DNA of 64,000 bases from an archaeon (GCA_029258755.1 JAPDKC010000009.1:46967-110966); one strand, 5' to 3'; positions 4,922 to 18,156 are shown, counted from the first letter of the stretch. The notes: generated by a model from the sequence alone, not told the origin. Translations and numbers: made by a program.

Positions 4922-5599
4922 TCAACATATATTATCTGACCTGTGATATAATCTGACTGCTCTTTTGGAAAATTCCTTTAAATATCTCTGGCTTTTAAAT
5001 TTTTTTCTATTTCGCTCAACCACTATTGTTCCAGGAGCAATTGCGTTCACACAGATATTATACTTAGCCAGCTCAAGCGCCATAATCTTAGTTAGCATAT
5101 TTATGCCCCCTTTGGAACATGCATAAGCACATTGCCCCTCTATGGCAAATTCTCCGGAAATGGAACTTATATTGATTATTTTGCCTTTCCGTATTTTTAT
5201 CATTTCCCTTGCAACTCGTTGACCACACAAAAAGTAGCCTTTTAAGTTGGTATTAATGGTTCTATCCCATAGATCTTCAGGATAATCAAGGAACTTATGA
5301 TAAGGAACGATTGCAGCATTATTTATTAACACATCAATACGACCAAACTTTTTCATAACTTCTTTTACACCAACGTCCACTTGTTTTTTCTTCGAAACAT
5401 CTACTTTTCTGATAAAAAACGGCCTCTCTGGAGTTTCTGTTATTTGCCTTTTTATATCTCTCAAACCACGTTCGTCGATATCAAAAACAGCTACCAAATT
5501 ACCCAAATTAAAAAGTTTAAAAGCTAAAGCCCGCCCAATTCCATTTGCGCCACCAGTAATTAAAAAGACTTTTTTGTCTTCATTAAACTTTTCTTCCAT
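4922..5599 (-). CDS. Short-chain dehydrogenase/reductase (SDR); 3' end appears frameshifted
   Basis: TGGANGIGRA Rossmann motif and YACSK catalytic motif. The expected C-terminus ...SDYITGQIIYVDGGLSVKGP is encoded in another frame, ending at 4894. Confidence 0.75.
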   Translation of the reverse strand: MEEKFNEDKKVFLITGGANGIGRALAFKLFNLGNLVAVFDIDERGLRDIKRQITETPERPFFIRKVDVSKKKQVDVGVKEVMKKFGRIDVLINNAAIVPYHKFLDYPEDLWDRTINTNLKGYFLCGQRVAREMIKIRKGKIINISSISGEFAIEGQCAYACSKGGINMLTKIMALELAKYNICVNAIAPGTIVVERNRKKFKSQRYLKEFSKRAVRLYHRSDNIC

Positions 5600-5688
5600 C
5601 TTTCACCATCTTATTTTTTAAATTAAATGATAACTGCTATTTAAATAATTAATGTTTAGTAACGCCGGCGCTACTTGGCTAATTTTCA

Positions 5689-6837
5689 TCAGCAAACCCT
5701 AAAACCCGTGTATTCTCTCCTCTTTTCCGGGATCTCCCTTATGAACTCTTCCAGATACCTTTTAACCTGCAGCGCTTCATCTATGCTCTTTATCTGCTCC
5801 TTCGTTTTGAGGTTTATCAGCTTTGTTTGCTTGCCTCTTCCGATTTTGATCAAGAACTCCTCTTCAGCCTCGCCGTTTCCATTCTCTTCGAACTTCTCGA
5901 GCTTCCTCAACCGCTTCAGCAGTTTCCTCTTCTGCTCCTCCACTTTCTGGGTGAACACCTTAACAGGATCGAGGATGAAGTAGTTTCTCGGCGTTGTGTT
6001 TGAGCATCTTACCAATCCGCAGTTTATGAGCTCCTTCAGAACAGCGTAAACAGTTGCCTTGCAGATGCCGGTTTCGTCCATTATCTGCTTTGCGGTTTTG
6101 ACCTCGCTTGAAAGAAGGTTGCAGCGCTTCAGCTTCCTCATGCAGAGCTCTGCCCTTATGTCCAGCTGATTCAATGCAGTTTCTTTGTCTTTGAATGCTT
6201 TGGTATTGCATGGAACGACGATGTAGAATAGCCTGTTCCTAACAGCGTTTTCCTCAATGAAATCCTGAACGAACCTTTTGAAAGCCTGGAACTGCTCCCA
6301 TAATTTTTTCGACTTTCTCTTCTCAACTTCAAGCCCCAGATCAGCCAGATACTCATTGAGCGAGAGGTTCACGGTTCTCACAACTATCTGAATCGGGAAG
6401 CTCAATGCATTGAGAAAGTCGCGGAAAGCACTTATTACTGCTTTCTGCTCCATTGCGGAGAGCATGGAAAAGCTTATCGGCACCACCTGCAGAACAGCGC
6501 AGGCTTTGCCATCATCGAGGATTATCGCATCCCTTTCAACTCTCGAAACCCCTACAAAACGCCTAGCTTTCTCATCGAAGTAACCTGCTTTTGTGCCTGA
6601 GAGCTTGAACGAAACGATAGCTTTGAGCTTTTCAAAGAGGTTGAAGAATGCAAAGGAAACGCCGAGAGAGATCAAAACAAGGGAAAGCCCGACTTTTAGC
6701 TCAAAAAGCATTGCAGTTTTGAAGAATATTACTGCTGCAATGCCGGTAAATAAGCCTAACCAGAAAAGCTGCGGAAGGCTGAGCCCGAAGAGGATCTTTT
6801 CCTCATACTTAAGCTCTTTTGGAATCTCATAAGCCAT
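5689..6837 (-). CDS. PrgI/VirB3-like 2-TM domain plus VirB4-N-terminal-like domain plus C-terminal winged-HTH; no ATPase domain
   Basis: KELKYEEKILFGLSLPQLFWLGLF matches the PrgI/VirB3 family N-terminus, with two TM helices. The following region (DAIILDDGKACAVLQVVPISFSMLSAMEQKAVISAFRDFLNAL) resembles the VirB4/TrbE N-domain. The C-terminus is a wHTH (ETGICKATVYAVLKELINCGLV) plus coiled coil. No Walker A is present. Confidence 0.4.
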   Translation of the reverse strand: MAYEIPKELKYEEKILFGLSLPQLFWLGLFTGIAAVIFFKTAMLFELKVGLSLVLISLGVSFAFFNLFEKLKAIVSFKLSGTKAGYFDEKARRFVGVSRVERDAIILDDGKACAVLQVVPISFSMLSAMEQKAVISAFRDFLNALSFPIQIVVRTVNLSLNEYLADLGLEVEKRKSKKLWEQFQAFKRFVQDFIEENAVRNRLFYIVVPCNTKAFKDKETALNQLDIRAELCMRKLKRCNLLSSEVKTAKQIMDETGICKATVYAVLKELINCGLVRCSNTTPRNYFILDPVKVFTQKVEEQKRKLLKRLRKLEKFEENGNGEAEEEFLIKIGRGKQTKLINLKTKEQIKSIDEALQVKRYLEEFIREIPEKRREYTGFRVC

Positions 6838-6887
6838 TGCAAGACCTCGCAGAAAGGTTTAAATATTCCTGAAAGATAGTTTTAAGT

Positions 6888-7286
6888 ATGATAAAAAATA
6901 TTGCAAAACCATCAGGGGAAGAATCCAAAGGGAAATTTGACTGGGTTAAAAATTCTGCTTTAGCCGTGATCTTTTCCGCTGTCGCGCTTTGGGTTACTGC
7001 GTTCCCCTTTTTTATTAGAGGATTCTTCAAAGGGGCAAATAGGGAATTATTAGTCTTATTTGTTATTATCACGCAGTCCATTTTGGTTCCAGCTGTGCTT
7101 GTAGTCTCTTTGATAGGGCTAGCTTTGGGGGTTGTGGGGTTGATTTTAGAGCTTAGAAAGGCTGAAAAGGACCGCATCAGGCTGTTGACAGCAGTAATGG
7201 CCATTTGCGGTAATTTATTTGCTTTTATGGGCGCATTTGAAGTAGCGGCGCCGGTTTTTGTTCTTTCGTTTTGGAAGTATTTTTGA
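6888..7286 (+). CDS. Small multi-TM membrane protein (hypothetical); the strand call is uncertain
   Basis: 132 aa with 3-4 clear TM helices. The competing minus-strand ORF 6827..7294 is low-complexity (T/S/K/N-rich), as expected for an antisense reading of a hydrophobic gene. Confidence 0.3.
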   Translation: MIKNIAKPSGEESKGKFDWVKNSALAVIFSAVALWVTAFPFFIRGFFKGANRELLVLFVIITQSILVPAVLVVSLIGLALGVVGLILELRKAEKDRIRLLTAVMAICGNLFAFMGAFEVAAPVFVLSFWKYF

Positions 7287-7293
7287 TAGGCCA

Positions 7294-8256
7294 TTATATC
7301 ACGGCTCCTGTAACAGCTTTTGCAACAACCACAAGCTCGGGGTTCTGAGATGCAACCGAGGATAGGCCTTTCAATATTGCAATAACCAAAATTGCCGCAT
7401 TCACAACAGCCGCAACAATGAAGCCCACAGCAAGCGCGAATGTTCCAAAGTACTCAAGCGATGCAAACTGAGTTGTGAGCATGGAAATGCCTAAAAGCAA
7501 AGCGGCATCGATAACCTGCATGAACACGATTGCACCGAAGAAGTTCAGAATCACAGAATCCCAAGCGCGCAAAGGAATTATGAAGTAGAGGAAAATTCCT
7601 ATTGGGATGAAAATCACACCCAAAATCAAAAAGAGCTGGCGCAGTAAAAGGGTTATTGCAAGCAAGAGTGCTCCAAAAGCGTAAAAAACAATCCAGAGCA
7701 AATTCAGGGCATCGAGCTGAGCTATATCAAACAGCGAATCGAGCTTTTCAGTCCAGATTGTCAGAGCAACAGCAGAGCTGAGCTGGAGCATAAGAGAATA
7801 GAGCAGAAGAGAGGCGTTGACAGCAACCACAATAACAACAGCGTTTTTCAGCCACTCCTTTGCGCTTTTCCTCTGCACAGCATCGTACGAACCAAGAAGA
7901 AACTTCAAACCTGCAAAAACGAACAGCAAAAGGTAAAAGCAAGAGATTACTGAAACAATCACGAGCCACAGATCCTGAAAATCGTAAGGGTTTATGTTGT
8001 TCAGAACCATTGCTTTTATGAAATCGAGGATCGGAGCTACAAAGGAAACAACTGTGCCTTTGAAGGAGTCCAGAATCGCATTTGCAACGTTGCAGGCAGG
8101 TTCGAAACGGAATCCCAGAGGCCTGCGCTCGCGTTTGAGAGCAAAAGCACAAGAAACAAAAGCGGCATTAAGAAACGAGCTCTCACAGCAGACCACCCAG
8201 TACTTTTTTTGCTGCAAAAAGTGTTGCGAAGTAGAGCGAAACAAATATGCTTCCAT
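7294..8256 (-). CDS. Polytopic integral membrane protein (VirB6/CedA-like?)
   Basis: At least 6 TM helices across about 240 aa. It sits in the operon between the pilin-like and VirB3/B4-like genes. The true start may be the internal Met (MVLNNINPYDF...). Confidence 0.4.
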   Translation of the reverse strand: MEAYLFRSTSQHFLQQKKYWVVCCESSFLNAAFVSCAFALKRERRPLGFRFEPACNVANAILDSFKGTVVSFVAPILDFIKAMVLNNINPYDFQDLWLVIVSVISCFYLLLFVFAGLKFLLGSYDAVQRKSAKEWLKNAVVIVVAVNASLLLYSLMLQLSSAVALTIWTEKLDSLFDIAQLDALNLLWIVFYAFGALLLAITLLLRQLFLILGVIFIPIGIFLYFIIPLRAWDSVILNFFGAIVFMQVIDAALLLGISMLTTQFASLEYFGTFALAVGFIVAAVVNAAILVIAILKGLSSVASQNPELVVVAKAVTGAVI

Positions 8257-8443
8257 CGAAAGCGGTTTTTCCAGCTTTTTTGAGAGTAAACGAGAAAGTG
8301 CTTTGCTTTGGTGGTTCGGATATACTCAAAGCAACCGAACTCTGCGCGTATGGACCCTTCAGAATCCGAACTCAGGAATTCGGTTTTCGCTACGCCGTTT
8401 TCATCGGTTAGCGCTTTTATTCTCTGCCTGCCGTTGAAGAAAA

Positions 8444-9646
8444 CTATTTCCTTATTTGCAAGGGTTTTCCGTTTGAGGTGAGAACAGCGGTTGCAAGTAC
8501 ATAATCGTTCTCTGAAAAGCTGCCGGAATTGAGAGAAAGTGAGAGCTCTGCGGGCTTTGCTTCAATTAAACACTTATTGCTCAGATCGAACTCTTCGAAT
8601 GCGGAATAAAGCTTCATTTTGCAGGCAGGGGCTTTCGCAAAGCCAAGCTTAATGAGCTTTCTTTTTGGGCTGAGATTGGAATTAAGATCTATTAAGCCGC
8701 GCGCTGATTTTCCAAGAGCGCTTTTGCGGACCACGAAAAGAACACCGTAAGGCTTGAGTGTTGAAGCAATGTCGAAGTTTTCTTCGGAAAAGGAAAAGCT
8801 GTTCTTGCCAAAAGAAACTGTGAACTCATTTACCGGCATGGTTGATTCAATCATGTAGCGGGCTTCACTTATGCCATCTTTGAGCTCAACAGCGCTCGCG
8901 AGATTGAAGTCAAAGAAATAAGCCTTTGCTCTGAACTCATCGCTCAGCTTTAAGGAATCTGTTCGCTCTGTTGTTTTGTAGTAGTCGCATGAGGTCCAGC
9001 AGTAGATTGTGCATACCTCATTGCAGAACTGCGCGCAATGCGACTGCTTTCGAAAATGCTTTTCAATGAGCTTTGCTTTTATGAACAGCTCTGCTGAAAA
9101 ATTCAGATCTTTTTCTTTGCCTGCCGAGTAGCTTGAAACTTTTTGCGAGCCTATTTTTGAGCCATTGAGGAAAACGCTAAGATTGTCTGCAAGCACTTTG
9201 TAGGAGCGCTCTGTTTTGCAGTCGTGCTCTGCTGTGTCTTTTGGCAATACAATTTCAAAATTGCCTGCCACTAGCACCCTGCCGCTTGGCTCAGCATACC
9301 ATTGGTTGGAATCGAGATCAAAGAAAGATCTATCAATAGCAATTATCTTCAGCCAAGCGTTTTTTATTATGCCTGAGCTGTGCTGCTGCAAGTTAGCGGG
9401 CGCTTCGCTGAAATTGAGCGAGTTGTTCCAATTCCAAATGAAAGCATAATCCGGCAGTACGCCCTGCTTGCTTAGAAGGTTGAGATACAGATCCTCTTTT
9501 TGCTCAACGCTGAGGGATTCATCTGCAAGGATGTTCTCGCACTCTGACTTTTTCCAGCCGTTGAGATGATCGCAGTTGGCTGGCAGTATTGCTGAGTAAG
9601 CCGAGGTAATCAACAGTATGCAAAACAAAGCAACAAAGCCTTTCAT
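8444..9646 (-). CDS. Secreted cysteine-rich protein (signal peptide), hypothetical
   Basis: N-terminal signal MKGFVALFCILLITSAYSA and multiple Cys clusters (CDHLNGWKKSEC; HCAQFCNEVCTIYCWTSCDYY). No recognised domain. Confidence 0.45.
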   Translation of the reverse strand: MKGFVALFCILLITSAYSAILPANCDHLNGWKKSECENILADESLSVEQKEDLYLNLLSKQGVLPDYAFIWNWNNSLNFSEAPANLQQHSSGIIKNAWLKIIAIDRSFFDLDSNQWYAEPSGRVLVAGNFEIVLPKDTAEHDCKTERSYKVLADNLSVFLNGSKIGSQKVSSYSAGKEKDLNFSAELFIKAKLIEKHFRKQSHCAQFCNEVCTIYCWTSCDYYKTTERTDSLKLSDEFRAKAYFFDFNLASAVELKDGISEARYMIESTMPVNEFTVSFGKNSFSFSEENFDIASTLKPYGVLFVVRKSALGKSARGLIDLNSNLSPKRKLIKLGFAKAPACKMKLYSAFEEFDLSNKCLIEAKPAELSLSLNSGSFSENDYVLATAVLTSNGKPLQIRK

Positions 9647-9655
9647 GGAATCTCC

Positions 9656-9979
9656 TTAAGCTGCTGTTAAGAAGTTAACCAAGTATGGAGCGATCCAGAT
9701 TATGAGCAGGCCCATTACTGCATAAGAAAGCATCTGCTTGGCGCTTTCTCTTGCCTGTATGTTCTCGCCGGAAGCCATGAAGCGGAAGCCTGCAAATGTA
9801 ATAACCAAGACAGCAACAATGGAAATTAGTGTTTGCACAACCGTGTATATGCGCTCCAATGGCTCCTTTATTTTTTGCAGGTTCTCATCGCTGGTATCAG
9901 CTGCGTGCACAAAAGGCGCAGCTGAAAGCATAAAGAAAATCAAAGTCGGGACCAAAAGAGGAATTAAAGCTTCTTTCAT
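9656..9979 (-). CDS. VirB2/TrbC-like (CedA1-like) small 2-TM pilin-like protein
   Basis: 107 aa: a signal-like N-terminus ending AAPFVHA, then two hydrophobic helices separated by a short polar loop. An SD-like GGAGGTG lies 5 nt upstream of the ATG. Confidence 0.4.
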   Translation of the reverse strand: MKEALIPLLVPTLIFFMLSAAPFVHAADTSDENLQKIKEPLERIYTVVQTLISIVAVLVITFAGFRFMASGENIQARESAKQMLSYAVMGLLIIWIAPYLVNFLTAA

Positions 9980-10095
9980 AGCAGCACCTCCAAGGTTAAT
10001 TAAGGTGCTGTGCTGAACCGAAAATATATTAAAAAGAAGGGTGAAAAGAGTCTGTGGAAAAGGGCGACTATAAAATAAAAAGAGTGTAAAAAATA

Positions 10096-10923
10096 TTATT
10101 TTTCTAAATAGGCTATTGTTTTTTCTATTAGCTCAGATACTTCCAAAAATCTGCCTACTATAATCTTTTTTCGGAGAGCTTCTTCTGTTTCCTTAAAATC
10201 GGGATAACGTGCACCAACATATTTAACAAGCACCATTGACAGAACACTAAATATGAGCAAAAGAATATACGTCTTTTTCAGTGTTTTGTATAGAAAGTTA
10301 AAATTAAATCTTTTCTTATTAGCTAACTTAGCTTCTTTCAGCAAGCGACTTGAGGAAAATATGGAAGACTGTATCGCTAAAAGTTGAATAGAGTCTATCT
10401 TGGCCATTTTTTTGATACTTTTAATTAATTTAGGATACTCCTCAATCAAGTTTGCAATAGTTTCATCTTCAGAGCTTTTCAAAGAAATTTTATTAAGATT
10501 TAGGCTTTTAAGGTAATTTTTCACCTTTTTGATAGCACTTTTATCACATCCAGCGATTTTTAACGTGTAGCTTTCCAAAGAACTTAAATTGGAAAGCCAT
10601 TTATCCCTAAATGGTTTGAGCATTTTAATTAATTGATCTACCCAGTCATGGCCAAACTCTTTTAAAGAGTTAACTTTGAATTTTTCTAAACCAAATCTAC
10701 GTAAAAGCTCTTCATTCTCGTTTGAAAACACTTCTTGAGGCCATAAAAGGCCTATGTCTACAATCGCTCCTTTGCTGGCTTTCTCTACAGATTGTTGAAG
10801 AGCAAATAATGCCTGTGGGTAATATCTGTGAGCGTAGGCATACTTGGCCATTTCTAAGTCTCTCTTGGCGTACTCATACCATTTTTTTGAATCCAAACAA
10901 AGACAATGTTTAGAGTTCTTCAT
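10096..10923 (-). CDS. HEPN-domain protein with C-terminal TM segment
   Basis: The N-terminus YEYAKRDLEMAKYAYAHRYYPQALFALQQSVEKASKGAI resembles the HEPN fold. A hydrophobic segment (ILLLIFSVLSMVLV) lies near the C-terminus. Confidence 0.35.
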   Translation of the reverse strand: MKNSKHCLCLDSKKWYEYAKRDLEMAKYAYAHRYYPQALFALQQSVEKASKGAIVDIGLLWPQEVFSNENEELLRRFGLEKFKVNSLKEFGHDWVDQLIKMLKPFRDKWLSNLSSLESYTLKIAGCDKSAIKKVKNYLKSLNLNKISLKSSEDETIANLIEEYPKLIKSIKKMAKIDSIQLLAIQSSIFSSSRLLKEAKLANKKRFNFNFLYKTLKKTYILLLIFSVLSMVLVKYVGARYPDFKETEEALRKKIIVGRFLEVSELIEKTIAYLEK

Positions 10924-11061
10924 AAAATTTATTGTTTAAAGTAAAGCAGAAAAAAGGACCCTTGGCGTTATTTATATTAAGAGGGCAATCAATAGGATTT
11001 TATTTTTTATTAATAATAGATGTATTATGGCTAGAAAAAAACTTAGGGAAATGCCTAGACG

Positions 11062-11451
11062 TTGTCAAAAAAAATACTGGGCAGGGAAGAAGTACTACTT
11101 GTCAAAAGCAACACCAACCGTAAAAGTTTCAGGATATGTAAGAAAAAAGATGAGGCTTATAATACAATCATTCTAGACCGCACAATTAAATTTCTTGAGG
11201 CTCGTTTGATTGAAGCAGGCGTAGCACAAATTAGCCCGCAACTATATGTATGTATTAAGGTTATAGAAAAAATTAATGACCTCAAGGAAATTTTTGATGC
11301 AATTGAAAATGGCGAATCTGATAGGGCCCTTGCTCTGCTCGTGGAACGGGGCATATTTGAGAGTATAGAAAGTGCGAGAAGGAAGGAAGATATGTTTAGA
11401 AAAATAGAAACATATTATTGGGAAGAAATAGGGGGAACTTTAAGTGTATAA
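11062..11451 (+). CDS. Hypothetical protein
   Basis: ORF only. Its end overlaps the next ORF by 8 nt, suggesting an operon. Confidence 0.3.
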   Translation: MSKKILGREEVLLVKSNTNRKSFRICKKKDEAYNTIILDRTIKFLEARLIEAGVAQISPQLYVCIKVIEKINDLKEIFDAIENGESDRALALLVERGIFESIESARRKEDMFRKIETYYWEEIGGTLSV

Positions 11452-11746
11452 AGAACCTTTAGATCGTGATGCTCTAATAAAGGCAGTACTAAAATTTTTG
11501 TGTATAGATGATCTGCTGGCCAGCGAAAAGAAAAAGCTTAAAAAGGGAGAATTAGTTGAGTTTCTTAAAGAAGAACCCCAACTAAGAAATCTGCTCAATG
11601 AAGCATTCGAAAAAGGGTGCAAACCGTATTTAAAAAAGGAAATAATAGATAACAAAGAATTGGAACGAATCTACGGAGAGTGTATCTGGAGGATGCACTC
11701 TTACCTTAAACAGCTAGAAGAAGAAAAAGGAAAGATAAAGAAGTAG
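11444..11746 (+). CDS. Hypothetical protein (GTG start)
   Basis: ORF only; overlaps and is probably co-transcribed with 11062..11451. Confidence 0.3.
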   Translation: MYKEPLDRDALIKAVLKFLCIDDLLASEKKKLKKGELVEFLKEEPQLRNLLNEAFEKGCKPYLKKEIIDNKELERIYGECIWRMHSYLKQLEEEKGKIKK

Positions 11747-11750
11747 AATT

Positions 11751-12266
11751 TTAATAATCCTCCGGCTTCATAAATGTACAGCTGCAACCATCAAGCACAA
11801 CCCATATTCTGCCCTTTTCAATCACTCGTAATCTCATATATTCTGTATCTTCTGGATCCGGCTTCTTAAGAAGCTCAATTCCTTTCTTTACAATTTCCTT
11901 GTAATTGTCCTTTACTTCTTCGAATAGGTTCATTGTGAAAACTATTGGCTTTCCATTAGCAAATTCACCTACCTTTACCAGAACACCATCTTCAATCGCC
12001 TGCTCAAGCGGATAGCTGTCAATCACTTCGCCGAAGAATTCTTCTGGAGAAGGAGCGGCCGTTTTCTGGCCACTCCCGTTGTTTCTTATGCGCTTCACTT
12101 CGAACTCAAGGAACTGATTAAGTCTGTTTGTTAATTCCTGCTTTACCTCGAGCATGTCATCGGTTTCTTCAAGCGCAACAGTAGCACCAATGAGTATGCC
12201 TTTGCTTTCATAGTTGCCAAGGTTGATCTTTCTGGAAACGCTTACTGTGAGCTCTTTAAGCTTCAC
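11751..12266 (-). CDS. Hypothetical protein
   Basis: 171-aa ORF with no recognisable motif. Confidence 0.35.
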   Translation of the reverse strand: MKLKELTVSVSRKINLGNYESKGILIGATVALEETDDMLEVKQELTNRLNQFLEFEVKRIRNNGSGQKTAAPSPEEFFGEVIDSYPLEQAIEDGVLVKVGEFANGKPIVFTMNLFEEVKDNYKEIVKKGIELLKKPDPEDTEYMRLRVIEKGRIWVVLDGCSCTFMKPEDY

Positions 12267-12629
12267 CTGCGATCACCTCCTTTGTATTGGTTTCTGCAGC
12301 GCCAGTCAAGCGCTTCAGCCCAGCGAACAGGCTCAGGAAGCAGGTAGTCATAGCTCTGCTTTTCGCTGAGCTTAACCGAATTGAAAAAACTTTTTTGCAA
12401 GCGAGCCACCTCCTAAAAGTTTTTTCTGGAGGCGGTTTGTGGATTTTGGTGGTATTAAATCCTTTCCGAAAGGCGCGGAGCGTGCTTGCTTGCAAGCAAA
12501 AGGTTTAAACCAGCAAAAGCCAGGCCGGAAAGAAAAAACTGGAGGTGGCGAGCGAAAAAGTTGCAGAGAGGTTAAGCGGAAAGCGGCAGAGTACAGATTT
12601 TTCAATGTGGGCGGCCAAAAATAGTAAAA
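12267..12629 (+). ncRNA. Candidate structured ncRNA (possibly SRP/7S RNA); strand tentative
   Basis: This 360-nt intergenic block has much higher GC than its surroundings and only short overlapping ORFs of odd composition. There is long-range complementarity: GCCACCTCC (12405-12413) with GGAGGTGGC (12540-12548), and AGTTTTTT with AAAAAACT. The motif CCAGGCCGGAAAG resembles the SRP RNA helix-8 apex. Confidence 0.35.
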
Positions 12630-13316
12630 TTAACGTCTAGACGGCCATTTTTTCCTGTTTTCGTTAATAAATCTCGCGGGAGAAACTGCAATAATGGGTG
12701 GTTTAATATCCCCAGTACTTTTGCCAAATTTTTCTAATAATTCAGAATCATTAGTGATAAAATACTTACAACCTTGGTAAACTGCTTGGGCAAGCAGATG
12801 AGCATCATTGCATAATAAACCGTGTTCTGAAATAAAAACCCCTGCTATTCCAAATAATTCTTTACTTTCTCTTGCTATTTTTGCATGTTTTTTAAGTTTA
12901 TTAAAGTATTCTTTGTTTTTAAGATAAATATCAAGATAAGTTCCTTTGGGAAATTTTTCTTTTCTTAATCTATAAAACTCTTCAATGGGAATAAAATTTC
13001 TATCCATATATCTTAAAATGTATTTTTCAAAAAGGACACTTAGAACTTCGGTCATGACCAGAGGCGAATAATAAAATTCGAAACCTTTGTTTTCACGGCA
13101 GACAAAGTGTTCAACGAATTCATACGACTGATAAAAAGTTTTTATGTATTTGTTACTATTAGTCCTTTGTTGTTCAATAAAGTCATTCTTTTCTTTTGTT
13201 GTTTGTTTTTGTGCAAGCAACGAATGAAAAATCAGCCAGTTAGCAATTACATTTGAATCAATTAAAGATTTTATCACAATTCTTGCATTTCCTCCAACCT
13301 TTTTTACTGGAGGCAA
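12630..13316 (-). CDS. PIN-domain protein
   Basis: Acidic residues at PIN positions: LIDSNVI ... VMTEV ... ITNDSELL. Confidence 0.4.
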   Translation of the reverse strand: MPPVKKVGGNARIVIKSLIDSNVIANWLIFHSLLAQKQTTKEKNDFIEQQRTNSNKYIKTFYQSYEFVEHFVCRENKGFEFYYSPLVMTEVLSVLFEKYILRYMDRNFIPIEEFYRLRKEKFPKGTYLDIYLKNKEYFNKLKKHAKIARESKELFGIAGVFISEHGLLCNDAHLLAQAVYQGCKYFITNDSELLEKFGKSTGDIKPPIIAVSPARFINENRKKWPSRR

Positions 13317-13962
13317 ATTATTTCCTCCTCCTAATATAGAAAGACACTCTTTTGCCGTCCCTTGTTTTAAAACTAACTTTAATTCTCCTTTTCAGTTTTT
13401 TACTCTTCCTGGTTTTTCTTTTTGTTTTCCCCATTTTACTCTATTTTATAACGACTTTATCTTTATTAATTCTTTTTGTTCCTCGTTGCTGTTAACTTAT
13501 TTGGGATCTCATATCTGTTTGGCTTTTTAATTTAAGAATATGGATGTTTGGTACATGCAAAAGTTCCACATCCCTACTTAGTTAACATTACCTTGTTCCT
13601 CCAAGGCTTAAACGAAATAGAAGTATTTTAAAAGAGAGCTAACAAGAAAATAAGGGGCAAATATGTCCAATTCATCTTTCTTTATTATTTACCGAAATAG
13701 AAGTCTGCAAAATAAACATTAATTTTTCCAACATTGTATTATAAAGCGGGCAAAATTAAAAATAGAATTTTTTAAGGCGAAAAATTCGAAAAAACCCCTA
13801 CTTTAGCTTTAAAGCGAAAAACAAGCTGTTTAGGCGCTTCTTTTACTAGCCATAAAATTTATAAACACTACAAAGCGTATAATTATTATAGTGGGTAAGT
13901 CCAAGCCAGCTCGTGTACCGGATGGTGCACTTTGCCAATAGGCTGGCTTGGGTCCACAATTT

Positions 13963-14589
13963 CTATTTCCATAATATCATGTTTTCTTTGTTCTCAATTT
14001 TCTCTTCAATTATTCTGAAGTAGTGATCATCGCCGGCGTTGAATTTTCTGTTTATGCTCCATGCAACAAAATCCACCACCTGCAGCTCGTTGCTGGCAAA
14101 AGATGGCTTGTGGAATATCTCTATATCCAACTCCTTGCACTTTCTTTTCAGCTTCCTCTTAATATAGCCATTGAAGTCCTCTCTCACAAGAGTGTTTGTA
14201 TGTTTTTTATCTATTGTGATTATCACTTTTCCTTTGTCCAAATTGAGCTCGTTTAGCAGTATGCCACACAGGTAATTGTAAAGCTTGTTCTTCACATCGA
14301 AAAGATAATCTTTAATCTTGTTTTTCTCAACAACTATGGCAAAAATGCGGCAGTCTGTTCTCTTAATTCTTTCTAGCACATATTCTCTTATCCGTTGGTT
14401 AGACTTGTTCGCTTTGATTTCAGGCATTTGCTTTATGGTTTTCTTCAGCTTTATCTGTCTCAGCCTTTTGATTATTCTTGCTAATTTCTTCGGCTCATCA
14501 ACCAAAACAGCAGCAACTGTGAAATACTTTGAGCCGAACTTTCCCAGATCACCGCTCTCATCTATGCAAACATAGTTAAGCCAGCCCAT
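13963..14589 (-). CDS. DUF3800-family protein
   Basis: N-terminal YVCIDESGD motif characteristic of DUF3800. Confidence 0.5.
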   Translation of the reverse strand: MGWLNYVCIDESGDLGKFGSKYFTVAAVLVDEPKKLARIIKRLRQIKLKKTIKQMPEIKANKSNQRIREYVLERIKRTDCRIFAIVVEKNKIKDYLFDVKNKLYNYLCGILLNELNLDKGKVIITIDKKHTNTLVREDFNGYIKRKLKRKCKELDIEIFHKPSFASNELQVVDFVAWSINRKFNAGDDHYFRIIEEKIENKENMILWK

Positions 14590-14720
14590 GGGAAAACCTC
14601 TGGATACGCTTAGCCGTTAAAGAATTCCTGGTACTCTAACTTATTTAAAAGCAATGGTAGAGAATTTCCGCTGACTTTTTTCACCACACGTTTAAATAGC
14701 TGAAAAAGAGGGATTAATTT

Positions 14721-15138
14721 ATGGGGGCTGGTTGTATGCATGCAAAAGAGGACTCTCTATCGGATTCTGAAATAACAGCAAAGCTTCTGGAGTTCATGTT
14801 GAGGAACAGAAAGGAGCTGAAGTTTGTTTTTGAGGAGCTTGAAAAGTACAGAATGTTAAAAGCACGGGGTGGTGGTGTTGGAGTACAAGGATCTGAAGCA
14901 CTTCGAACAGGTGCACGGAAAGCTGTTTGTGTATCTCCTTGAAGAGCTGGATAAATTCATGAGGGGATCTGATGAGGGATCTGAGCCGGAGGAGATTCAA
15001 CTCAAATAATCCGCAGGCAAACTACATAAAAATTCAGGAGAGGATTGACTCTTTGGAGCACAGGTTGAGGGAATTGGACCAGCTTATAATTGAAGGGATG
15101 AGCAGAATAAGCGAGCTGGAGAATAAGTCGAATACGTG
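14721..15138 (+). pseudogene. Coiled-coil hypothetical gene broken into three successive reading frames
   Basis: Frame 1 covers 14721-14942, frame 3 from about 14868 to 15008, and frame 2 from about 14973 to 15138. Each picks up where the previous one stops. The first junction sits at an A4 run. Confidence 0.35.
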
Positions 15139-15193
15139 AAAAAGGTTCGGGTAAACGCCTGTTTTAAATTGCATTGGCACAGTTGGTAATCTT

Positions 15194-16600
15194 TTAAAAC
15201 CCCGGGGGTCTACGATGCTCATAACGTCCTTTGAATAATGTGCTTTTTTGTTTAGTAGATTTCCTTTGCCTCTTGCCTTGAACTTTTTGATAACCTCTCA
15301 CTCTCACGGGTTTTTTAGTCAGATTATTTTCCATTTGATAAAGCTGTTGCCTTGTTTTTATCTTTTTCTTGTATAAGCTTACAAATCTTGGAAGATCTGT
15401 TGCGAGGACAGCGACGGTTTCTTTTATTAAGTTCAAACCTAACATGGAAAAAATTGCAGGGGCTACCCTGTCATCACTGACCTCAGTGCATATTTCACTG
15501 CCGATATCTGGCCGAATTATTTTTAAATTATCTTTAATAATGTCCTCGATAGATTTTATCCAAAACTGCGAAATCCAATCCCCTAACAGGATTTTAAGCA
15601 ACCTAAAAATAAAAATTTTTAAAATTTCTTCATCAATTTTTTCAAGTGTCTCCCTCTTTTCTTCTAAAGACTTCATAAACTTACGTAGTCTATCGTCATG
15701 AATGTTCTCGATTGTTTCCTCCTCAGTTATTCTTCCAGAGAAAGAAAGGGAAGTAGTAATAAGTTGGCTTAAAATTTCAATGTCACTCTTGCTAGGTTCT
15801 TTACCCTCCCTCTCTTTCTGCAAGATACTTGCTGCCTTAAGACCTGCGTAGTAAAAAGCTTTTTTTGAAAGATAGGGGGTAGAATTTGCGCGTAGCTTTT
15901 CAAGCAGGTCTGCTTTAAATTCTTTAGTTGCATAGTTGGGAGCAAGGATTTTTTCAATGAACTTTTTATCCTCAAAGGGCAAGCTTGGGGATACCACGAA
16001 ATCGCCGTTGTTTATATCTTTTGAAAAAACATATACGGCAGATATCTCCGCAAATTTGCCATCTCTGCGCGACAACGTTTTATAGGTCTTGATCCATTTA
16101 GGCTGTAAACTCTCGTCACCGCCATCTTTTACAAAGAAAAATTTTGCCGAATCTCGCCCTTCTTCAAAATACCTCAAACTGAGTGTTATTTTTTCACTTA
16201 CATTTATCTCTAAAAAGACGATATATGGCCCAACTATTCCTTTTTTTGCCCTCCTTAAAGCATCGTACAGGGCATTCCAATCATGTTTCCCAAATTCCCA
16301 ACATAAGGTCTTCAAACCAGACGGTTTCTTATCTATCTTTAGTTCTTCGAGGGAAACGGTTTTAACTTCAACAAAAAATTCAGTGCCATCTAAAATTATC
16401 CTGTAGTCAGGAGTCTTGCTCGTGTGCTCTAAAGAAGGTTCGTATTCAATCTCATCCGCACCTTTATCTATGAAAAAGAACCCAACCTTAACTTCGGGAA
16501 GTGTTTGTCTAGGTCGCCTCTTTAAATTTTCAATCAATTTTTTATTATTTTTTATTGCATAAAGTCGCTCATCATTTAAAAGACTCTCAGTTTCGCTCAT
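15194..16600 (-). CDS. PD-(D/E)xK nuclease-fold protein, 468 aa (hypothetical)
   Basis: Textbook motif PDYRIILDGTEFFVEVKT (PD-x12-E-x-K) in the N-terminal third. A basic tail (KKPVRVRGYQKVQGKRQRK...) follows. Confidence 0.45.
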   Translation of the reverse strand: MSETESLLNDERLYAIKNNKKLIENLKRRPRQTLPEVKVGFFFIDKGADEIEYEPSLEHTSKTPDYRIILDGTEFFVEVKTVSLEELKIDKKPSGLKTLCWEFGKHDWNALYDALRRAKKGIVGPYIVFLEINVSEKITLSLRYFEEGRDSAKFFFVKDGGDESLQPKWIKTYKTLSRRDGKFAEISAVYVFSKDINNGDFVVSPSLPFEDKKFIEKILAPNYATKEFKADLLEKLRANSTPYLSKKAFYYAGLKAASILQKEREGKEPSKSDIEILSQLITTSLSFSGRITEEETIENIHDDRLRKFMKSLEEKRETLEKIDEEILKIFIFRLLKILLGDWISQFWIKSIEDIIKDNLKIIRPDIGSEICTEVSDDRVAPAIFSMLGLNLIKETVAVLATDLPRFVSLYKKKIKTRQQLYQMENNLTKKPVRVRGYQKVQGKRQRKSTKQKSTLFKGRYEHRRPPGF

Positions 16601-16665: not shown

Positions 16666-17895
16666 TTAAAGTTCCCTATTTTGCCCATCTAAAAGTAACT
16701 GCTGCTGCATTGAAGCCAAAATCTGCTGAACTCTGTCAGGATTCGCCTTTGAAAGGCTCTTGACCATATCTAACAGCTGAACCAGAACAATTGAGCTTTT
16801 CTCATCCAGATGCTTTATCTCGTCCACTTCGTATTGGGCTGAAGGTTTCAATGGAAGCCAGCACTTCTCGCAGTATTCAAAGGTGACATCGTTTACATGG
16901 CTACAGCGGGGGCACTTCAAAGGCTTCAGAATATCTTCTTTCTTTTCCTCCTTCTTCAGACCGTAGAGTTTCAGGATTGCATCGTCCATCTGCTTGCCGC
17001 TCAAGTGCACATAGCGAGCTGCCATATCCGAATCGCGGACCCATCCAAAGTATTCTTTCATCTGCGCTTCCGTCAAGAACTGCGCCAAGTAGGTTGCTCT
17101 GGAGTGTCTGAAGTTGTGCGGGTTCACAGGTTTTTTCAGGCCTACCCTTCTTGCAATTTTGTGAAGCTGGAGCCTTAGTGCATCATAAGTCATCAAAGAA
17201 ACTTTGTCCACATTTGTGCTGACCCAGAGAGGCGCTTCCGGATCCTCTCTTCTGGGATGGTGGTTTATCCACTCCAGAAGGTAAAGAGCAGCACTAACCA
17301 GGCGGATTCTTCGCATGCCTGTTTTTCCGTTTATTGTGATCTTACAGCCAAATTCATCAAAGGCGACATGCTTTATTTTCATTGTTCCGATTTCGCCAGC
17401 TCTCGCACCGGATTCCCAGAGGACCGCAACAAGCGCTTTGTCCCGTTTGTTCTCGCAGAATTTGAGAAGAAGCTTTACATCCTCTGGTGTGAGCAGCTCC
17501 TCAGGAAGCTTCTTGATTCGGTTTTCCTTGACACGCATCCAAGCAACACATTCTGGGTACTCGTTGTTGCCGTTGAGCCACTTGTGGAACACTTTAAGGA
17601 CCTTGATGTAGGTGTGCACGGTTTCTTGAGATAGCCCCCTTCTCTTGAGCTCTGCTATGAATTTCATGTAATCTTCCTTTGTGGCTTTATCAAAGTCTTT
17701 ACCCAAAGCGATAGCAACAATTTTCAGAATATTTGTTTGTCTTGATATTCTCGCAACACTGAGATCTCTGGCAAAGTTGTAGTCGTGGAATTTGAGAATC
17801 AGCTCTTTGTTGTGCTTCGATATCTTTTTGGATTTTTTAATGGATTCTATTTCCTTATCTAAAAGCTTCTTATAATCGTGGAATTTTTCATACAT
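16666..17895 (-). CDS. Tyrosine-type site-specific integrase/recombinase
   Basis: C-terminal catalytic region contains R (WESGARAGE), HNFRHSRATYL and ARYVH. An N-terminal SAM-like core-binding domain is present. Confidence 0.85.
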   Translation of the reverse strand: MYEKFHDYKKLLDKEIESIKKSKKISKHNKELILKFHDYNFARDLSVARISRQTNILKIVAIALGKDFDKATKEDYMKFIAELKRRGLSQETVHTYIKVLKVFHKWLNGNNEYPECVAWMRVKENRIKKLPEELLTPEDVKLLLKFCENKRDKALVAVLWESGARAGEIGTMKIKHVAFDEFGCKITINGKTGMRRIRLVSAALYLLEWINHHPRREDPEAPLWVSTNVDKVSLMTYDALRLQLHKIARRVGLKKPVNPHNFRHSRATYLAQFLTEAQMKEYFGWVRDSDMAARYVHLSGKQMDDAILKLYGLKKEEKKEDILKPLKCPRCSHVNDVTFEYCEKCWLPLKPSAQYEVDEIKHLDEKSSIVLVQLLDMVKSLSKANPDRVQQILASMQQQLLLDGQNREL

Positions 17896-17955: not shown

Positions 17956-18096
17956 AAAAAGCCAACGCCCAGGCCGGGATTCGAACCCGGATCGCAGCCT
18001 TCCTGCAATTTGCTGAATATTAGCAGCGGGTTGCTGGGGATAATAAGGACCCGCTGGAGGTCCTTATTTCGACAGGGCTGCATCCTAACCCTTAGA
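17956..18096 (-). tRNA. tRNA-Asp(GTC) with a 69-nt intron in the anticodon loop
   Basis: Minus-strand read: acceptor GCCCAGG/CCTGGGC, T-arm CCGGGTTCGAATCCCGG, anticodon stem CAGCC/GGCTG with loop CT-GTC-G...A. The intron forms strong hairpins (AATAAGGACC/GGTCCTTATT). No CCA is encoded. Confidence 0.6.
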
Positions 18097-18156
18097 CTAC
18101 CTGGGCACAGCTTAATAAATTATAAGTTAGGTGCAAGGTTTAAAAAATAATTACTT

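Follow-up and report, generated by a model that had tools for sequence, protein, structure and literature searches.

TrsD is a small protein that is remotely homologous to the N-terminal part of the type IV secretion system (T4SS) ATPase VirB4 and is usually encoded beside virB4, according to a study of the T4SS of Patescibacteria that reports no VirB3–VirB4 fusions in that group (PMC12102498). The minimal gene set formed by TrsD of the pGO1/pSK41-type MPF-FATA systems and by the TrsD/PrgI/VirB4/VirB6/VirB2 complement of Patescibacteria is also that of a group of archaeal T4SS-like clusters, although the archaeal TrsD forms a single protein with PrgI/VirB3. In the 64,000-nucleotide (nt) stretch of archaeal DNA analysed here (GCA_029258755.1 JAPDKC010000009.1:46967-110966, hereafter the window), the copy of this PrgI/TrsD gene is truncated and continues, within an open reading frame (ORF) of 382 amino acids (aa) at positions 5689–6837, into most of a TrmB-like transcriptional regulator. 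This singleton chimeric ORF was probably left by a real and recent microhomology-mediated deletion of ~2.8 kb in a degenerating T4SS module carried by an integrated element.

The closest counterparts of the chimera are the archaeal 'PrgI family proteins' (PF12666 and PF26593) of Diapherotrites/Iainarchaeota T4SS-like clusters, with which it shares two transmembrane helices, a putative TrsD-like fold and a position downstream of a VirB6-like gene and, at a greater distance, of a VirB2-type pilin gene, but from which it differs in having lost the conserved last 40–65 residues, in having no ATPase gene next to it and in possessing a foreign C-terminal stretch of 139 residues. The likeness to the VirB4/TraC/TrbE ATPases, including the VirB3–VirB4 fusions of the Mycoplasma integrative and conjugative element (Mbov_0397 family), is confined to the N-terminal part (residues 5–244), whereas the P-loop domain and its Walker A motif are missing, the ATPase half being a separate gene in this lineage and absent from the window. 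The C-terminal part corresponds to short TrmB-type winged helix–turn–helix (wHTH) proteins (P0100–P0110; ~153–172 aa) encoded downstream of archaeal VirB4, although in the chimera it is devoid of its own start and promoter. Unlike the true TrmB sugar sensors (~340 aa), the whole of this short subfamily (153–172 aa) lacks the C-terminal sugar-binding domain, and the TrmB/TrmBL1 NCBIfam models (338–349 positions) match it over their first ~100 positions only.

Domain content of the chimeric ORF

The chimeric ORF and its parts are the following (L and P numbers denote related loci and proteins, respectively, throughout).

5689–6837, minus strand: chimeric ORF, 382 aa, ATG start; PrgI/VirB3 and TrsD-like VirB4 N-terminal part (residues 1–243) followed by a truncated TrmB-like part (residues ~241–382)
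6628–6825, minus strand: PrgI/VirB3 segment, residues 5–70, with two transmembrane helices (Pfam, structure prediction, hydropathy scan)
6109–6570, minus strand: TrsD-like/VirB4 N-terminal (TraC-like) domain, residues ~90–243 (profile matches, homologue alignment, fold comparison)
5965–6117, minus strand: TrmB-type wHTH, residues 241–291 (PF01978, alignments, structure prediction)
5692–5967, minus strand: long charged helix (residues 291–318) and small C-terminal region, from the TrmB-like gene

The presence of PrgI/VirB3 at the N-terminus, proposed in an original prediction made from the sequence, is borne out by a match of residues 5–70 to PF12666 (E = 2e-7; score 31.9 bits, gathering threshold 27). 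Hydrophobic helices are predicted by AlphaFold2 (AF2) at residues ~21–40 and 45–64 with a predicted local distance difference test (pLDDT) score above 90, and hydropathy windows above 1.6 begin between residues 15 and 53. The likeness of residues ~90–200 to the VirB4/TrbE N-domain, also part of that prediction, was found again with VirB4 N-terminal-type profiles (from NCBIfam, NF041427 and the N-terminal part of NF045975). Positions 3–270 of the VirB4_plasma profile, an NCBIfam model of Mbov_0397-type VirB3–VirB4 fusions with 894 positions, correspond to residues 5–244 (E = 3.4e-7), the NCBIfam TrsD/TraD model matches residues 103–237 weakly (E = 0.009) and the homologues of this region carry PF26593 (TraC-like). 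The curated whole-protein cut-offs of the VirB4 and TrsD models are not reached by the chimera, in which only the N-terminal part exists. The AF2 model comprises an alpha/beta domain that is confident up to residue 240, and all eight of its best PDB matches in Foldseek are R388 TrwK/VirB4 chains or VirB4-containing complexes, with weak statistics (probability 0.80–0.99, E between 0.02 and 0.08, ~160–206 aligned columns and low TM-scores), in weak agreement with the profile matches.

As had been noted, there is no Walker A motif in the chimera, nor any match to a P-loop family (motif scan, Pfam and NCBIfam); the sole hhhhD[DE] match, AIILDD at residue 104, lies inside the TrsD-like domain without a Walker A partner. 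The expected wHTH follows, with residues 241–291 matching PF01978 (TrmB; E = 7.9e-9; score 35.7 bits, gathering threshold 25.6), and it is in turn followed by a helix predicted at residues 291–318 (AF2), with ten Lys/Arg and nine Asp/Glu among residues 291–330. The wHTH, however, spans only positions 17–67 of the 68 of PF01978, while that of the intact stand-alone relative P0100 spans positions 5–67, and a complete winged helix (helices 1–3 and the wing) is not present in the chimera.

Two parental families and the junction between them

Among 5.8 billion proteins searched, 99 homologues of the N-terminal half were retrieved (210–350 aa, mostly 280–330). All of them carry PF12666 and/or PF26593, the latter according to precomputed annotations, and several, from Ca. 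Diapherotrites, bear the name 'PrgI family protein'. These homologues align to residues 1 to ~250 of the query only. Residues 1–243 are ~95% identical to P0001 and P0002 and 45–60% identical to many others; the closest two possess the normal C-terminus of the family. Family homology ends at residue 243 (…LKRCNLLS; alignment A1), after which P0001 and P0002 go on with the family-typical KRLNSEELISLLASFFNGF… and the window with SEVKTAKQIMDETGICKATVY…; the conserved C-terminal segment KRLxTxELVSLLASFFxGF is missing and TrmB sequence stands in its place.

The contigs of the relatives share a gene order of pilin, TrbL_3/VirB6-like gene, PrgI + TraC-like gene, often an ORF of 40–59 aa, and an ATPase of 750–766 aa with DUF87, P-loop_TraG and AAA_10 domains. 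The ATPase lies beside the PrgI gene in L003, L005, L006, L009 and L091, and partial ATPase ORFs are found at contig ends in L002 and L007. Positions 2–181 of the CD1110-type VirB4 model match residues 92–270 of the family member P0013 (E = 9.5e-10) and positions 191–752 match the neighbouring ATPase; likewise, positions 3–285 of the VirB4_plasma model match P0013, which is also matched by the TrsD model of NCBIfam (E = 3.4e-6), and positions 293–893 match the neighbouring ATPase. Since the two halves of each profile map to adjacent genes, VirB4 is natively split in this archaeal lineage into a PrgI + TrsD-like VirB4 N-terminal protein and an ATPase of ~750 aa. With the PrgI/TrsD gene natively devoid of an ATPase domain, the association of VirB3 with a VirB4 N-terminal part alone is therefore the norm of the family and not a truncation. 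Unsplit proteins of 880–1100 aa also exist, such as P0121 (947 aa), an unsplit PrgI–VirB4. The original prediction of a truncation and fusion product was thus essentially right, but the parent was not a VirB4 shorn of its ATPase domain, since the ATPase is a separate gene; within the polypeptide only the last 40–65 residues of PrgI/TrsD have been lost, in addition to the loss of the whole ATPase gene.

A conserved compact module can be recognized in Iainarchaeota/Diapherotrites-like archaea, consisting of a VirB2-type pilin, a TrbL/VirB6-like protein, a PrgI(VirB3)–TrsD fusion, an ORF of 40–59 aa and a VirB4 ATPase without N-domain. A short TrmB-like regulator often comes next, and an integrase is often close by. 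The module is represented in L003, L005, L006, L009 and L091, partially in L001, L002 and L007, and at 5689–10095 in the window. This module, which parallels the recently described T4SS of Patescibacteria, is more noteworthy than the chimera itself; a literature search found no paper on the archaeal (DPANN) module or on such a fusion.

When residues 236–382 alone were used as the query, stand-alone TrmB-family proteins of 153–172 aa were retrieved. Residues 241–382 are 89% identical to residues 29–170 of P0100, a stand-alone TrmB-like protein of 171 aa, and this similarity identifies the wHTH and helix as the neighbouring TrmB-like gene reduced to its 3′ five-sixths. Absent from the chimera are the 28 N-terminal residues of the TrmB-like protein, which contain helix 1 and the motif YSDLIxGFGxNH…Y with eight nearly invariant positions; alignments indicate that the recognition helix, the wing, the long charged helix and the C-terminal region have been kept. 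Mean pLDDT values of ten-residue blocks are 82–92 for residues 21–70 of intact P0100 and 42–60 for residues 241–300 of the chimera (AF2).

The point at which homology switches from one parent to the other is marked by a short repeat.

6107–6118, minus strand: deletion junction (as interpreted here), a 12-nt microhomology, CCTTCTTTCAAG (minus-strand reading), common to L002 (T4SS side) and L008 (TrmB side)

The match of the window to L001 and L002 (~92% nt identity) ends at 6105–6107, and that to L008, the locus of P0100 (88% nt identity), begins at 6118 and runs towards lower positions. The 12 nt common to both parental-type sequences at the switch bear the signature of a microhomology-mediated deletion. 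What would have been deleted can be read from relatives in which all genes lie on one strand: L009 carries the VirB6-like gene, PrgI/TrsD (P0004), the 59-aa ORF, an ATPase of 757 aa and the TrmB-like gene (P0108), and L091 carries the pilin, the VirB6-like gene, PrgI/TrsD, the 59-aa ORF, an ATPase of 758 aa and a TrmB-like gene of 171 aa (P0102). The TrmB-like gene thus directly follows the ATPase on the downstream side in L009, in L091 and, probably, in L010, and the missing stretch measures ~2.75–2.83 kb in L009/L091 coordinates. In tblastn searches of all frames of the window with four ATPase sequences no VirB4 ATPase gene was found (best E = 0.15), and the ATPase-domain remnants that had been suggested to lie in other frames near 5600–5690 are accordingly not there; the 59-aa ORF, the lost C-terminus of PrgI/TrsD and the N-terminus of TrmB also gave no tblastn match in the window, which contains the two parental halves only. 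A 228-aa gene upstream of TrmB in L092 was checked as a possible ATPase remnant and is not one.

The G+C content is continuous across the join, with 45.1% on its T4SS side (44.6–45.1% over the T4SS genes), 46.9% in the TrmB part and 44.5% in the integrase of the element, against 36.5–37.4% in the flanks. As the T4SS genes, the TrmB part and the integrase are alike in this respect and unlike the flanks, the junction lies inside one element, to which both halves belong.

No protein joining both halves was found among the 5.8 billion proteins, in a word-indexed search in which TrmB-only relatives were not listed and the candidate step was not exhaustive, nor among the best 150 matches of an exhaustive search of 1.84 billion representatives, in which both kinds of relatives were listed. 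The matches of the exhaustive search cover either residues 1 to ~250 or ~240–380 of the query, not both; nine mid-length matches (361–520 aa) are free of an HTH, six having PrgI with or without TraC_F_IV (one of them also with the start of an ATPase) and three having no Pfam domain at E ≤ 0.001. Exact-pattern scans of genome and metagenome contig collections gave no match to the junction sequence, and the exact 382-aa protein is not on record in the collections searched. A family of full-length proteins with the same architecture and an unrelated function, which would have spoken against the original prediction, was not encountered in either protein search.

Probable decay of the module and proposed origin of the chimera

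Upstream of the chimeric ORF, the following genes of the T4SS cluster can be recognized.

9656–9979, minus strand: TrbC/VirB2-type T4SS pilin, 107 aa, apparently intact (PF04956, E = 2.4e-11; PF18895, E = 1.4e-10)
8183–9646, minus strand: broken homologue of the 487-aa signal-peptide protein of L001; open frame at 8444–9646 (400 aa)
7294–8186, minus strand: polytopic TrbL/VirB6-like gene, frameshifted (−1 at ~8092); the relatives carry PF19590 (TrbL_3)

By comparison with L001 (90% nt identity over 2.8 kb), three 1-nt indels are found within genes and could represent pseudogenization or sequencing errors. The homologue of the 487-aa gene is disrupted twice, at ~8463 (−1) and at ~8270 (+1), and its 400-aa frame ends without the hydrophobic stretch VFVSLYFATLFAA, which may serve as a membrane anchor at the C-terminus. 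In the VirB6-like gene, the sequence VRARFLMPLLFLVLLLSNASAGLWDSVSNLPA, with which the native protein would begin, sits in another frame and runs to a stop. An intact set of VirB4 ATPase, VirB6-like protein, VirB3 and pilin is not found at the locus, where only the pilin is intact.

It can be proposed that the ancestral locus was a small MPF-FATA-like module for type IV secretion of the conjugation type, encoding on one strand a VirB2-like pilin, the secreted 487-aa protein, a VirB6/TrbL-like protein, a PrgI(VirB3) + TrsD-like VirB4 N-terminal protein, the 59-aa ORF, a VirB4 ATPase of ~750 aa and the 171-aa TrmB-like regulator. Recombination or replication slippage between the two 12-nt copies of CCTTCTTTCAAG would have taken out the 3′ end of PrgI/TrsD (40–65 codons), the 59-aa ORF and the ATPase gene in full, as well as the 5′ end of the TrmB-like gene (28 codons) together with its promoter, producing an in-frame chimera by accident. 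If made, the product would be a membrane protein with two transmembrane helices, a cytoplasmic TrsD-like domain and a wHTH without its first helix. Lacking an ATPase partner, and with frameshifts in the genes of the VirB6-like and 487-aa proteins, the module would be unable to work in secretion or conjugation, and the chimera is most likely to be a non-functional remnant heading for loss. The striking domain combination is then to be regarded as a deletion scar and does not merit cataloguing as a novel protein architecture; its value is modest, and lies in a well resolved microhomology-mediated gene fusion and in an example of how a conjugation-type module on an integrated element decays in a DPANN archaeon with a reduced genome.

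Several observations weigh against this explanation. The ORF is intact and in frame, an outcome that a random deletion yields once in three times, and the ratio of nonsynonymous to synonymous substitution rates (dN/dS) is low, at 0.06–0.07 in the N-terminal half and 0.08 in the TrmB half, so that no relaxed selection is seen within the ORF; nor is there an excess of unique amino-acid changes, with four in the window, six in L001 and five in L002. Low dN/dS fits either a very recent event or a retained function; as both halves show it, a deletion that took place late compared with the divergence from the relatives (dS ~0.35–0.8) is the most economical interpretation. Two of the three frameshifting indels in the neighbouring genes lie in short A runs, and these frameshifts may be sequencing errors; the genome may also have an ATPase gene beyond the limits of the window. 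In addition, the drop in pLDDT over the wHTH is a hint rather than proof, as the AF2 comparison rests on shallow and differing alignments, and the junction is that of an assembled sequence.

This last point bears on the possibility that the join was made by the assembler or by a chimeric read during amplification, the real genome having a complete cluster. The window probably comes from a metagenome assembly, neither its exact protein nor its junction occurs in any of the collections searched, the join falls on a short repeat and the nearby 1-nt indels could be read errors. A repeat of 12 nt is, however, below the k-mer sizes usual in assemblers, and the two sides of the join are neighbours in intact relatives in the same order and orientation, as expected of an internal deletion but not of a random chimera. 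The G+C content does not change over the join, and the integrase of the window is intact where that of L008 is split, giving no sign of a generally error-prone assembly; an artefact is thus considered quite unlikely. It is most improbable, on the other hand, that a T4SS fragment extending from the pilin to the middle of prgI/trsD recombined beside a resident TrmB-like gene without any internal deletion. Such a partial acquisition would agree with the location of the closest TrmB-like gene (L008, 88% nt identity) in an integrase-linked island with no T4SS gene called within 10 kb on either side, and with the sharp limits of T4SS-segment homology, at ~6105 and 10060–10095, but the TrmB-like gene keeps its place directly after the ATPase in the relatives named above, and its part of the chimera has a G+C content like that of the T4SS genes. 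A single deletion is also simpler, the outcome for the chimeric protein being identical in both cases.

The unbroken reading frame and the low dN/dS of both halves can also be read as signs of a neo-functionalized, membrane-tethered regulator acting in the manner of ToxR or CadC, the fusion having been kept, for example, to tether the DNA of the element or to control the remaining genes of the cluster. PrgI/VirB3 and VirB4 N-terminal domains face the cytoplasm in solved T4SS structures; the same orientation in the chimera, the best PDB matches of which belong to the R388 inner-membrane complex, would place the HTH on the DNA side of the membrane, and the recognition helix, wing and dimerization helix of the TrmB part are present. 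Nevertheless, the fusion is a singleton in both protein searches, the closest relatives (92% nt identity) are unfused, helix 1 and the eight nearly invariant positions at the N-terminus of the wHTH are gone, the AF2 confidence on this domain is far below that of the intact relative and low dN/dS reflects mostly the history that preceded the event. This reading is accordingly regarded as very unlikely, and the purpose-built membrane-tethered DNA-binding protein of the original prediction finds no support, given the incomplete wHTH, the low AF2 confidence and the failure of the searches to bring up another protein of this architecture. That the chimera is expressed and is now a membrane-anchored putative DNA-binding protein, either a regulator or a DNA tether, derived from a VirB3/VirB4 N-terminal module and a TrmB-type HTH, is highly improbable; if true, the birth of a new membrane-bound transcription factor would have been caught in a DPANN archaeon.

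Surroundings, integrated element and host

Further features of the window lie next to the chimeric ORF and at the far side of the T4SS remnant.

6839–7286, plus strand: 448-bp segment absent from L001, with a flanking 9-nt repeat, ATGGCYTAY
6888–7286, plus strand: ORF within the 448-bp segment, 132 aa, hydrophobic, probable membrane protein
16666–17895, minus strand: tyrosine integrase, 409 aa, adjoining an intron-containing tRNA gene; G+C content 44.5%
17966–18106, minus strand: tRNA gene, 141 nt, with an intron of ~70 nt (Rfam RF00005, 48.9 bits; missed by ARAGORN)

The 448-bp segment lies between the VirB6-like gene and the chimeric ORF and may be a small mobile or exchangeable cassette. 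Its 9-nt repeat (ATGGCCTAT/ATGGCTTAT) duplicates the start of the prgI-like gene, and its counterpart in L002 is strongly diverged, with a near-identical 31-nt end and ~47% identity over 30 aa only. In the adjacent VirB6-like gene, the listed 320-aa ORF at 7294–8256 has an artefactual N-terminus, the native start being at ~8186 in another frame. Downstream of the chimera, ordinary metabolic genes are found, including an ORF similar to short-chain dehydrogenases/reductases at 4922–5599.

The tyrosine integrase is likely to be that of the element that brought the T4SS cluster, and the intron-containing tRNA gene is its likely integration target. The integrase is intact in the window and split into two ORFs (145 and 171 aa) at 6279–7322 in L008, the region being 95.6% identical, which suggests that this integrated element has been decaying independently in a sister lineage. 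A 110-nt intergenic block at 914–1023 of the window is 90% identical to L008 16092–16199, at the far end of the integrase-linked variable region of L008. Within this block, at 926–937, there is an exact 12-nt copy, ACGCCCAGGCCG, of the 3′ end of the tRNA gene (17965–17976), with ~0.3 such copies expected by chance. These two sites may be an attachment (att) pair around a variable region of ~17 kb, an assignment that is suggestive at best, as the 12-nt match alone is not significant; a search for att sites of the element gave nothing beyond this match.

Between the T4SS remnant and the integrase, the region 10096–16600 has a G+C content of 36.5% and encodes a HEPN-domain protein (10096–10923), a PIN-domain protein (12630–13316), a DUF3800 protein (13963–14589) and a number of ORFs without annotation; the region resembles a toxin/defence-type island that entered the older element or landed beside it. 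As for the host, the intron-containing tRNA, a tetraether lipid synthase (Tes) and a cysteinyl-tRNA synthetase with its closest matches (up to 64%) in Candidatus Iainarchaeum metagenome-assembled genomes (DPANN) point to an Iainarchaeota/Diapherotrites-like DPANN archaeon.

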